Sequence record: NC_054912.1
DNA from: Escherichia phage vB_EcoM_F1
Direction: 5' to 3' (one strand)
Length of the DNA: 64,000 nucleotides
Shown: positions 58,903 to 63,058 of the stretch, in pieces
Numbering within the stretch: position 1 is the first letter of the stretch
Layout of the letters: each line of letters starts with the position of its first letter
Notes under the pieces: generated by a model
What the model was told of the DNA's origin: nothing
The model's database searches: none
The model's input: the letters and a program-made list of their open reading frames with translations, nothing else
Position numbers and translations under genes: made by a program

Positions 58903-61900
58903 ATGGCTACTTTAAAACAAATACAATTTAAAAGAAGCAAAACCGCAGGAGCACGTCCTGCCGCTTCAGTATTAGCCGAAGGTGAATTGGCTATAAACTT
59001 AAAAGATCGCGTACTTTTTACTAAAGATGACCAAGGAAATATTATTGATCTGGGTTTTGCTAAAGGCGGTAGCATTGACGGGAATGTTATTCATACAGGA
59101 AACTATAATCAAACTGGTGATTATACTTTAAATGGCACCTTCACTCAGACAGGTAATTTTAATTTAACTGGTATTGCTCGAGTAACTCGCGATATTATTG
59201 CCGCCGGGCAAATTATGACCGAGGGCGGAGAACTTATTACAAAAAGTTCAGGTACAGCACATGTTCGTTTTTTCGATAACAATAGTCGCGAACGCGGAAT
59301 CATTTATGCCCCGGCTAATGATGGTTTAACTACACAAGTACTTAATATCAGGGTTCAAGACTACGCCGCTGGTAGCGAAAGCACTTATGCATTTTCAGGC
59401 AGTGGACTATTTACTTCACCTGAAGTATCAGCATGGAAATCTATTTCGTCTCCACAAATTCTGACCAACAAAGTCATTACTAATAATAAATCTACGGGTG
59501 ATTATGACATCTATTCGATGGCAGACAATGTTCCATTGTCTGAAAGCACTACTGCTATTAATCATCTTCGTGTCATGCGTAATGCCGTTGGTTCTGGTAT
59601 TTTCCATGAAGTTAAAGATAATGATGGAATAACTTGGTATGCAGGTGATGGACTTGACACCTATCTTTGGTCATTTACTTGGAGCGGCGGAATTAAATCA
59701 AGTCACTCAATTTCTATTGGTTTAACACCTGGTAATAAAGATTATTCAATATTAGGACCATCTAGTATTGCTTTAGGAGATAATGATACTGGATTTAAAT
59801 GGCATCAAGATGGATATTATTTCAGCGTTAATAATGGAACAAAAACGTTTTTATTTAGTCCTAGCGAAACAACTAGCCTAAGAAAATTTGTAGCTGGATA
59901 TTCTACTAACGGAACCGATTTAACTACTCCTCCAACTGAAAATTATGCTCTTGCTACTGTAGTGACATACCACGATAATAACGCGTTTGGAGATGGTCAG
60001 ACTCTTTTAGGATATTATCAAGGCGGTAATTATCATCATTATTTTCGCGGTAAGGGTACTACAAACATTAATACTCATGGCGGTTTGTTAGTTACTCCAG
60101 GTAATATTGACGTTATTGGTGGTTCTGTTAATATTGATGGTCGTAATAATTCTTCTACGCTGATGTTTAGAGGTAACACAACTGGTAGTAGTTCAGTTGA
60201 TAACATGACAATTTCTGTGTGGGGTAATACATTTATTAATCCTAGCGAAGGTAATCGCAAAAATGTCATGGAAATTTCTGACGCAACTAGTTGGATGAGC
60301 TATATTCAACGAACAACTGCAGGTAAAGTCGAATCGGTTATAAATGGCACCCAGATTGTTAATGAAAACTTGACAGTAGTAAAAAATGCTACATTTGACG
60401 GTACAATCAGCGCAGCCGGTGAAATCGCGACAAATGCTGTAAATGGTCTTCGCATTTGGAATGCAGATTATGGAGCCATTTTTAGACGTTCAGAAGGCAG
60501 TCTTCATATTATTCCAACTGCTTACGGTGAAGGTAAATATGGCGATATCGGTCCACTTCGCCCGTTTAGTATGGCTTTAGATACTGGTAAAGTTACTATT
60601 CCAGATTTACAATCAAGTTACAATACGTTCGCAGCAAACGGCTATATTAAATTTACTGGTCACGGTGCGGGCGCTGGCGGTTATGCCATTCAATATGCTC
60701 AAGCGGCTCCTATTTTCCAGGAAATCGATGATGATGCTGTAAGCAAATATTATCCTATTGTTAAACAGAAGTTTTTAAACGGTAAATGCGTTTGGTCTTT
60801 AGGTACTGAAATTAATTCGGGTACATTCGTTATTCATCATCTGAAAGAAGATGGTTCACAAGGACATACGTCTCGTTTTAATCAAGACGGTACCGTTAAC
60901 TTCCCAGATAACGTTTCTGTCGGCGGCGGTGAAGCTACTATTGCTCGCAATGGTAATATCTTCTCTGATATTTGGAAACCGTTTACTTCTGCAGGTGATA
61001 CTACAAATATTCGCGATGCTATTGCGACTCGTGTTTCGAAAGAAGGCGACACGATAACAGGCAAATTGACTTTATCGGCAGGTAATGATGCCCTTGTTTT
61101 AACTGCAGGCACGGGCGCTTCATCGCACATCCGTAGTGATGTAGGTGGTACAAATAATTGGTATATAGGCAAAGGCGGCGGCGACAATGGTCTAGGTTTT
61201 TACAGTTACATTACACAAGGCGGTGTATACATAACAAATAACGGCGAAATAGCGCTTTCTCCTCAAGGACAAGGAACGTTTAATTTTAATAGAGATCGCC
61301 TTCATATAAATGGTACACAATGGACTGCGCACCAGGCTGGCGATTGGGGAAGTCAATGGAAACAAGAAGCTCCCGTATTTGTGGATTTTGGCTACGTCGG
61401 TAATGATAGTTATTATCCAATTATCAAAGGAAAATCTGGTATTACTAACGAAGGATATTTTTCCAGCGTTGATTTTGGTATGCGACGCATTCCTAATAAC
61501 TGGGCACAAGGTATTATTCGTGTAGGTAATCAGGAAAACGGTTCCAACCCACAAGCTATCTTCGAATTCCACCATAATGGAAACATGTACGTTCCTGACA
61601 TGGTTAAAGCTGGAGCAAGAGTATCAGCTGGTGGAGGTGACCCTGTATGGACAGGCGCATGTGTTGTTATTGGTGATAATGATACCGGATTAGTTCATGG
61701 TGGTGATGGGCGAATTAACATGGTTGCAAATGGAATGCATATTGCTTCGTGGTCGTCCGCTTACCATCTCCATGAAGGTCTTTGGGATACCACTGGTGCT
61801 CTGTGGACTGAACACGGAAGAGCTATTATTTCTTTTGGTCATTTAGTCCAACAAAGCGATGCCTATTCCACATTTGTCCGCGATGTTTATGTCCGTTCTG

Positions 61901-62232
61901 ATATTCGTGTTAAAAAAGACCTCGTTAAATTTGAAAATGCTTCTGAGAAGCTTTCCAAAATTAATGGTTACACTTATATGCAGAAGCGAGGCCTAGATGA
62001 AGAAGGCAATCAGAAATGGGAACCTAACGCCGGTTTAATTGCTCAAGAAGTTCAAGCTATTTTGCCAGAATTAGTTGAAGGTGACCCGGATGGTGAAGCT
62101 TTACTTCGTTTGAACTATAACGGTGTAATTGGTTTAAATACAGCTGCAATCAATGAGCATACTGCAGAAATTGCGGAACTTAAATCAGAAATTGAAGAAC
62201 TTAAAGCATTAGTTAAATCATTGTTAAAATAA
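58903..62232 (+). CDS. 37: long tail fibre distal subunit gp37 with C-terminal intramolecular chaperone domain (T2-type)
   Basis: 1109 aa; N-terminus [36 protein letters not shown]; C-terminus SDIRVKKDL...[31 protein letters not shown] resembles S74-type autocleaving chaperone domains. Confidence 0.9.
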
Positions 62233-62263
62233 TAAGAGGGGCTTCGGCCCCTTGGAGGTTTAT

Positions 62264-63058
62264 ATGGCAGTAACAGGACCGTGGGTAGGATCGTCTGCAG
62301 TAGTTAATACAGGACAAAATTGGATGGGTGGCGCGGCCCAACGATTAAGAATGGGTGCTCCATTTTGGATGAGTAATATGATAGGTCGATCTGTTGAAGT
62401 AATTCACACACTTGGAGCGGACCATAACTTCAATGGTCAATGGTTCCGAGATAGATGTTTTGAGGCAGGTAGTGCACCTATAGTGTTTAATATCACTGGA
62501 AATTTGGTATCATATTCTAGAGATGTTCCTTTATTCTTCATGTATGGAGATACACCGAATGAATATGTTCAGTTGAATATTAGTGGCGGCGCCCACATGT
62601 GGGGTAGAGGTGGACAAGGTGGATGGACTCATTCCGGCGGAGATGGTAATGGCCAACAAGGTGGCCATTGTATTCAAAATGACATTGGCGGACGATTAAG
62701 AATTAATAACGGCGGAGTAATTTGTGGCGGTGGAGGCGGTGGTGGTGGTATCGCTTATCGTCCTCACTCTGGCGCAAAATGGCAAGATATTGGTGGTGGC
62801 GGAGGAAGACCATTTGGGCCAGGAGGCGGTGGTGGTTATTCCGGCGGCGCAGCTTCTTATGATGGCCCAGGAGGTGGTTATAATTATGGTAATGCTCACT
62901 CTGGCCAGGGTGGTGATGCTGGCGCAAATGGACAAAATGCCTGGCATGATGGCGGTAAAGTTCTAAAAGTCGGGGCTGGCGGAGCTGCTGGTTATGCCGT
63001 CATAGGGTCTACACCGACATGGCAAAACGTTGGAGCAATATATGGTCCAAGAGTATAA
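62264..63058 (+). CDS. 38: T2-type receptor-binding adhesin gp38 with glycine-rich motifs
   Basis: 264 aa from ATG 62264 ([13 protein letters not shown]...), SD GGAGG; poly-Gly runs GGGGGGGG, GGGGG, GGGGG separated by variable segments. Confidence 0.85.

Follow-up and report, generated by a model that had tools for sequence, protein, structure and literature searches.

The C-terminal domain of gp37

The stretch of DNA analyzed here (the window) comprises 64,000 nucleotides of Escherichia phage vB_EcoM_F1 (NC_054912.1), and the subject of this analysis is the C terminus of gp37, the precursor of the distal subunit of the long tail fiber. Gene 37 (58903..62232, + strand) is an open reading frame (ORF) of 1109 amino acids that ends with a stop codon at 62230-62232 (+ strand), and it is followed by gene 38 (62264..63058, + strand), which begins with an ATG and encodes a 264-amino acid tail fiber adhesin that is predicted to cap processed gp37. 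In T-even fibers, gp37 is a trimer. We find it very likely that gp37 residues 999-1109 (111 amino acids; 61897..62229, + strand) belong to the Peptidase_S74 family (MEROPS S74) and form a self-cleaving intramolecular chaperone domain. The domain starts at residue 999 and continues to the end of the protein, and so occupies its extreme C terminus; codon 999 (TCT, Ser) starts at base 61897, in the context ...FVRDVYVR|SDIRVKKDL....

The 4.2-kb stretch that contains genes 37 and 38 matches Escherichia phage vB_EcoM_FN (MZ170041.1) at 100% identity; this phage is a Tequatrovirus whose source was poultry sewage. Its coding sequence (CDS) FN1NEW_0254 encodes a protein with 100% identity to gp37. The comparisons labeled FN below therefore use a sequence identical to that of the window. 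In MZ170041.1, gp37 and gp38 both carry the same label, merely "tail fibers protein."

When the whole of gp37 was searched against Pfam, the profile PF13884 (Peptidase_S74, "chaperone of endosialidase") matched residues 999-1058 (61897..62076, + strand; profile positions 1-57 of 58) with a score of 48.5 bits and an expectation value (E) of 1.1e-12. With the last 111 amino acids alone, the score was 54.6 bits (E 1.3e-14), and the curated cut-off of this profile is 22 bits. A first-pass annotation, made from the letters of the window, had proposed that the last ∼110 residues of gp37 resemble the chaperone domains of endosialidases, with a conserved Ser at the cleavage boundary, and had named a Peptidase_S74 profile search as a check. 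That search is significant and far above the cut-off, the interval and the peptides quoted are confirmed, and the interval opens with the conserved Ser, the catalytic Lys lying five positions further on. A search with the domain profile found no second S74 domain in the rest of the 64-kb window.

Searches against solved structures place the domain in the same family. Among PDB sequences, the last 210 residues of gp37 matched gp37 of Salmonella phage S16 (6F45_A) with an E value of 7.4e-44 over gp37 residues 918-1109, and by BLASTP residues 571-749 of the S16 protein share 48% identity with the tip and chaperone of gp37. The only other structure found by this single-sequence search, and weakly, was the intramolecular chaperone autoprocessing (ICA) domain of MYRF. 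When an alignment of six diverse phage domains (A1) was used as the search profile, the MYRF ICA domain (7DC3) was recovered with an E value of 3.7e-10; the profile was needed to reach the tail fiber 8JOV (E 7.3e-7) and 3GUD, the intramolecular chaperone of the GA-1 neck appendage (E 6.5e-4). The domains of endoNF (3GW6) and T5 (4UW8) were missed by the sequence profile and were found by fold search alone.

The residues predicted to carry out cleavage are present at the start of the domain. Ser999 (codon TCT, 61897..61899, + strand), at the first S74 profile position, is the predicted nucleophile, with Arg998-Ser999 as the predicted scissile bond, and Lys1004 (codon AAA, 61912..61914, + strand), the invariant K6 of the six-sequence alignment, is the predicted general base of a Ser-Lys dyad. 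These two residues align with Ser911/Lys916 of endoNF, Ser638/Lys643 of S16, and Ser1243/Lys1248 of T2, and the +5 spacing from Ser to Lys equals that of endoNF Lys916 and T5 Lys1269. (MAFFT misaligned the insertion-rich endoNF domain outside the Ser/Lys motif, and the endoNF alignment was used for the dyad alone.) Across the six domains, the S-D-x-R-x-K motif (S1, D2, R4, and K6) and AGLIAQ...LP..V are invariant; the invariant columns beyond the first motif are G24, Y27, A45, G46, A49, Q50, L56, P57, and V60.

An AlphaFold2 monomer model of the 111 residues, built from an 18-row alignment, has a mean pLDDT score (predicted local distance difference test) of 83.6. The alignment was fed by a wide protein search for the domain that returned 22 proteins, mostly short fragments, and is uninformative on the distribution of the domain. 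In the model, a small α/β part is followed by a 37-residue helix (domain residues 74-110), with pLDDT values of 93-97 over residues 81-110, so the predicted model contains the S74-type fold of an α/β part plus a long helix. This helix (gp37 residues 1072-1108; 62116..62226, + strand) is predicted from the model and its heptads to assemble as a trimeric coiled coil, with Ile, Leu, Met, or Val at 8 of the 11 a/d positions in the best register. A fold search with the predicted model retrieved solved S74 chaperone domains.

Architecture of the fiber tip and its closest relatives

The product of gene 38 matched two Pfam families, GP38 (PF05268, E 2.6e-68) and Gp38_N (PF21721, E 1.6e-21). In both T2 and S16, gp37 ends in an S74 domain and is followed by a gp38 with PF05268 and PF21721. 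By BLASTP, the gp38 of the window is 58, 45, and 40% identical to its counterparts in T6, S16, and T2, respectively, and gave no match to T4 gp38, a protein that matched no Pfam family. The gp37 of T4 (1026 amino acids) carries the Collar (PF07484) and Phage_fiber (PF03335) needle domains and lacks an S74 domain; a Pfam scan found no match to Collar or Phage_fiber in gp37 of the window, whose likeness to T4 gp37 stops at about residue 646. A T4-type tip was rejected, as gp37 is without the needle domains and has an S74 domain, and gp38 is unlike that of T4.

At the level of sequence, the architecture of the tip is T2-type and not T4-type, and the sequence of the module is not that of T2. The chaperone shares ∼33% identity with the T2 and T6 domains, 53-57% with the S16 domain, and 98-100% with the domains of AR1 and RB51. 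The N terminus of gp38 resembles MAVQGPWVGSS of S16, unlike the GVPGWIG form found in T2 and T6, and its Trp7, Trp20, and Trp35 correspond to Trp7, Trp20, and Trp36 of S16 and to Trp9, Trp22, and Trp37 of T2. Judged by these comparisons, the phage of the window is in a lock-and-key subtype other than that of T2, one common to AR1, PP01, RB27, and RB51. The first-pass annotation had called the tip T2-like and not T4-like; this holds for the architecture, given the S74 domain and a gp38 of the adhesin family, and fails for the sequence subtype. It had also set the 1109 amino acids of gp37 against the 1026 of T4. Both lengths are correct but have no weight as evidence, because S74-bearing gp37 proteins span 749-1341 amino acids (S16, 749; T6, 994; the window, 1109; T2, 1341), and the predicted mature gp37 of the window, at 998 amino acids, is shorter than T4 gp37.

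The closest known system is that of S16, in which the gp37 tip is followed by an S74 chaperone of ∼112 amino acids and then by a PF05268/PF21721 gp38. The two gp37 proteins share the motif R-D-x-x-V-x|S-D-x-R-x-K-K, the peptides AGLIAQEV and RLNYNG, and an extended C-terminal helix that ends ELK..VK.L.K, and both gp38 proteins start with MAV.GPWVGSS and have three conserved Trp residues. S16 differs in belonging to the genus Gelderlandvirus, in the length of its gp37, and in having Ser rather than Arg before the scissile Ser. The receptor-binding domains of the two gp38 proteins are ∼45% identical, and the title of the S16 reference gives OmpC as its receptor, whereas FN is reported to use OmpA and lipopolysaccharide (LPS). 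T2 is, like the window phage, a Tequatrovirus with the gene order 36-37-38-t, an adhesin-type gp38, and a ...VYIR|SDIRLK motif, and its S74 domain lies at gp37 residues 1243-1300 (E 3.3e-15). In contrast, the T2 chaperone has 99 amino acids and lacks about the last three heptads of the helix.

More distant systems share parts of this arrangement. In T5, a long fiber ends in a C-terminal chaperone that cleaves itself off; it has Ser1264/Lys1269 and consists of a trimeric coiled coil at the center with an α/β part at its flank. The domain of the T5-like phage GreteKellenberger is 39-41% identical to the gp37 chaperone. The domain of endosialidase endoNF of coliphage K1F (PDB 3GW6) is 14-16% identical, has 154 amino acids with insertions, and chaperones a tailspike with a triple β-helix stalk, a product that has no adhesin cap. 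The MYRF ICA domain (7DC3) belongs to a membrane-bound transcription factor of animals, from which cleavage frees a DNA-binding fragment. In T4, the N-terminal two-thirds of gp37 is homologous and the genes stand in the same order, but there the Collar and the His-rich needle of gp37 are the receptor-binding domain, and gp38 and gp57A are trans-acting chaperones.

The presence of an S74 chaperone on gp37 is already a known feature of T-even phages of the T2/S16 type, and the domain-level annotation given here refines the GenBank label "tail fibers protein" without adding new biology.

Predicted maturation of gp37 and alternative readings

In T5, Lys1269 activates Ser1264, the Thr1263-Ser1264 bond is cut, and an S1264A substitution blocks cleavage; the folding sensor is an Arg from the neighboring subunit, with the pair Arg1250/Asp1239 (PMC4690869). 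Passages of PMC7917993 and PMC7289586 that draw on Dunne et al. (2018) describe the S16 system; PMC7917993 reports autocleavage of the S16 chaperone, at DLNVS^SDRRIKK, and states that the gp38 docking surface of S16 is exposed only after cleavage and that the N-terminal tryptophans of gp38 plug into the gp37 tip. According to the relevant passage of Trojet et al. 2011 (PMC3157838, citing Drexler, Riede & Henning 1986), the C termini of T2 and T6 gp37 are proteolytically cleaved and the proteins are capped by gp38. According to a 2025 survey, Straboviridae gp37-like fibers without the T4 needle bear an S74 domain that cleaves itself, S16 being an example (PMC12143355).

By analogy with T2, S16, T5, and endoNF, we infer that gp37 of the window phage cleaves itself in a way that depends on the trimer, that the chaperone is released, and that gp38 caps the fiber. 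Three nascent gp37 chains would join through their C-terminal domains, the long terminal helices forming a trimeric coiled coil that would set the register and nucleate folding of the β-structured tip from its C-terminal end. Only in the correctly folded trimer would Lys1004 activate Ser999, so that the Arg998-Ser999 bond would be cut in each chain and the chaperone trimer released, to be absent from the virion. The predicted mature gp37 would then consist of residues 1-998, ending ...FVRDVYVR998 (58903..61896, + strand), an end set from the cleavage position by alignment with DLNVS^SDRRIKK of S16 and Thr1263-Ser1264 of T5. Its distal tip (residues 919-998; 61657..61896, + strand) is, by homology to the S16 tip in 6F45_A, the predicted docking platform for gp38. 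The exposed ...RDVYVR face would take up the attachment domain of gp38 through Trp7, Trp20, and Trp35, and the glycine-rich C-terminal domain of gp38 would recognize the host receptor.

The tip and chaperone module is widespread among related phages. A phage tblastn search found it in AR1, PP01, RB27, RB51, RB68, and HY01 at 93-99% amino acid identity, and found the chaperone at ≥95% identity in 177 phage records and a recognizable homolog in 1229. Selection was assessed by comparing FN with CE1, SfPhi01, AR1, and RB51, which gives four non-independent comparisons. Amino acid identity to FN is 98-100% in the chaperone (residues 999-1109) and 96-98% over the first 45 gp38 residues, against 75-99% in the 80-residue tip before the chaperone and 64-97% in the receptor-binding domain of gp38. 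Summed over the four comparisons, 32 codon differences in the chaperone are synonymous and 5 are nonsynonymous; for the tip, the two kinds are roughly balanced in the three diverged relatives. No mature part of the distal fiber other than the N terminus is as conserved as the chaperone. This pattern of codon differences indicates strong purifying selection on a segment that is expected to be absent from the virion, and such selection fits an essential role in folding and cleavage. It is unlikely, in our estimate, that the chaperone has a role beyond folding, be it in the hand-over of the tip to gp38 after cleavage or the timing of gp38 loading, or as a homology arm for swaps of tips and adhesins. 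The conserved chaperone and the conserved first 45 residues of gp38 bracket the variable gp37 tip and the gp38 receptor-binding domain (61657-63058), and these conserved blocks look like recombination arms around specificity cassettes, an idea that the selection on the chaperone would fit as well.

The high conservation of the domain within the distal fiber could also suit a permanent structural role, that is, a genuine S74-type chaperone that is retained on the fiber tip, where it would act as a structural cap or contribute to the site at which gp38 docks. The case for cleavage here is made by analogy, which leaves room for such a reading, yet neither the Ser nor the Lys that cleavage requires has been lost, and S16, the closest solved relative, exposes its docking surface only once the chaperone is gone, as the cited part of PMC7917993 has it. 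T2 and T6 gp37 are processed as well, in the account given in PMC3157838, and in a cryo-electron microscopy study of another S74-bearing fiber the peptidase domain had no density (PMC12143355). With these observations taken together, we consider retention of the domain very unlikely.

Another possibility is that the C terminus is removed by a host protease or another phage protease and not by its own Ser-Lys dyad. The original work on T2 is described, in the passage of PMC3157838 cited above, simply as proteolytic processing with its mechanism unstated. An external protease would, however, leave the invariant S-x4-K dyad to be explained, as it lies exactly at the domain boundary with the spacing of homologs proven to cleave themselves. 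Loss of cleavage in the T5 S1264A protein (PMC4690869) and the autocleavage reported for the S16 chaperone (in the part of PMC7917993 already cited) also speak for the dyad, and we regard removal by another protease as extremely unlikely. That the similarity is due to chance or composition, with an ordinary fiber terminus that has, for example, only a coiled coil, has a negligible probability: one long amphipathic helix does make up about a third of the domain and draws many low-Z structural matches, but this reading is effectively refuted by the Pfam match, the 6F45_A match, the PDB matches of the A1 profile, and the fold search.

Four points weigh against assigning residues 999-1109 to a self-cleaving S74 chaperone as described above. 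Our literature search found no experimental work on cleavage in this phage or in the AR1/PP01/RB51 subtype, for which cleavage is assigned by analogy. The true scissile bond could lie one residue away from the predicted one, an uncertainty in the cut position that arises because the Ser of phi29 is modeled on the mature side. The folding-sensor residues of T5 and endoNF cannot be mapped onto gp37 because the tip domains are non-homologous; Arg993-Asp994 of gp37 (RDVYVR|S) is kept in S16 (RDLNVS|S), and the tip is not homologous to that of T5 or endoNF. Finally, a Foldseek search of the monomer model against the PDB returned nothing significant, with 3GUD_B at rank 29 and a template modeling score of 0.45, a miss that is unsurprising because the query was a single chain of an intertwined trimer.

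If gp37 matures as proposed, the host-recognition element of this phage would be gp38 docked on processed gp37 rather than the tip of gp37. A preprint on vB_EcoM_FN reports that OmpA and LPS are the receptors and ascribes differences in host range to gp38. The assignment is relevant to the prediction of host range, to fiber engineering, and to recombinant expression, in which the construct would have to retain the chaperone and gp38 would have to be expressed along with it.

Gene 38, the intercistronic region, and the rest of the fiber cluster

The ATG of gene 38 at 62264 lies 31 nucleotides past the gp37 stop codon. A mechanically made list of ORFs starts gp38 at a TTG at 62252; counted from this TTG, the Gp38_N match starts at residue 5. 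From the start of the Gp38_N match, the Shine-Dalgarno sequence GGAGG (62254-62258, + strand), and the CDS start in GenBank, the real start of gp38 is the ATG at 62264, which gives a protein of 264 amino acids beginning MAVTGPW.... The GGAGG sequence is 5 nucleotides upstream of this ATG and adjoins a GC hairpin with a UUCG loop between genes 37 and 38 (62236..62253, + strand; GAGGGGC-UUCG-GCCCCUU, 7-bp stem, about -13 kcal/mol). No T-run follows the stem. An equivalent hairpin with other stem and loop sequences is found at the same spot in T2, T4, T6, S16, and KP15, and some records carry it as a terminator. It may stabilize the gene 37 message or damp translation of gp38.

Long polyglycine runs are present in gp38, for example GGGGGGGG at residues 154-161 of 264. 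Such runs are typical of the polyglycine receptor-binding domain to which the title of the S16 gp38 paper refers. The G-rich stretch of gene 38 also gives three spurious ORFs (74-83 amino acids; 62696-62966) on the opposite strand and in other frames.

Genes 37 and 38 are part of a T-even long tail fiber cluster at the right end of the window, in which gene 34 (1289 amino acids), gene 35 (371 amino acids), and gene 36 (218 amino acids) are also on the + strand and the holin gene t (+ strand) comes after gene 38. The N terminus of gp37 is common to T4, T2, and T6 gp37, and the protein as a whole is a mosaic: residues 1-646 are ∼34% identical, with gaps, to T4 and T2 gp37, residues 706-898 share 57% identity with T6, and residues 919-1109 are nearest to S16 (48%), a phage of another genus. 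Within gp37, residues 449-556 (60247-60570) matched the Pfam family Gp34_trimer (PF21446, E 1e-8), the trimerization domain of the proximal fiber subunit. The same family scored 50.1 bits in T2 gp37, above the cut-off, and 25.5 bits in T4 gp37, below the cut-off of 27 bits. These profile matches suggest that gp34 and gp37 share shaft modules.

Fragments of gp37 are also filed in protein records under the name of the host. C-terminal gp37 fragments of 170 amino acids that start at an internal Met (MVANG...) are listed as "tail fiber domain-containing protein [Escherichia coli]," and they come from T-even phage genomes that were deposited under the host name. More distant S74 domains follow collagen-like repeats (PF01391) in tail proteins of E. 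coli and Salmonella prophages.

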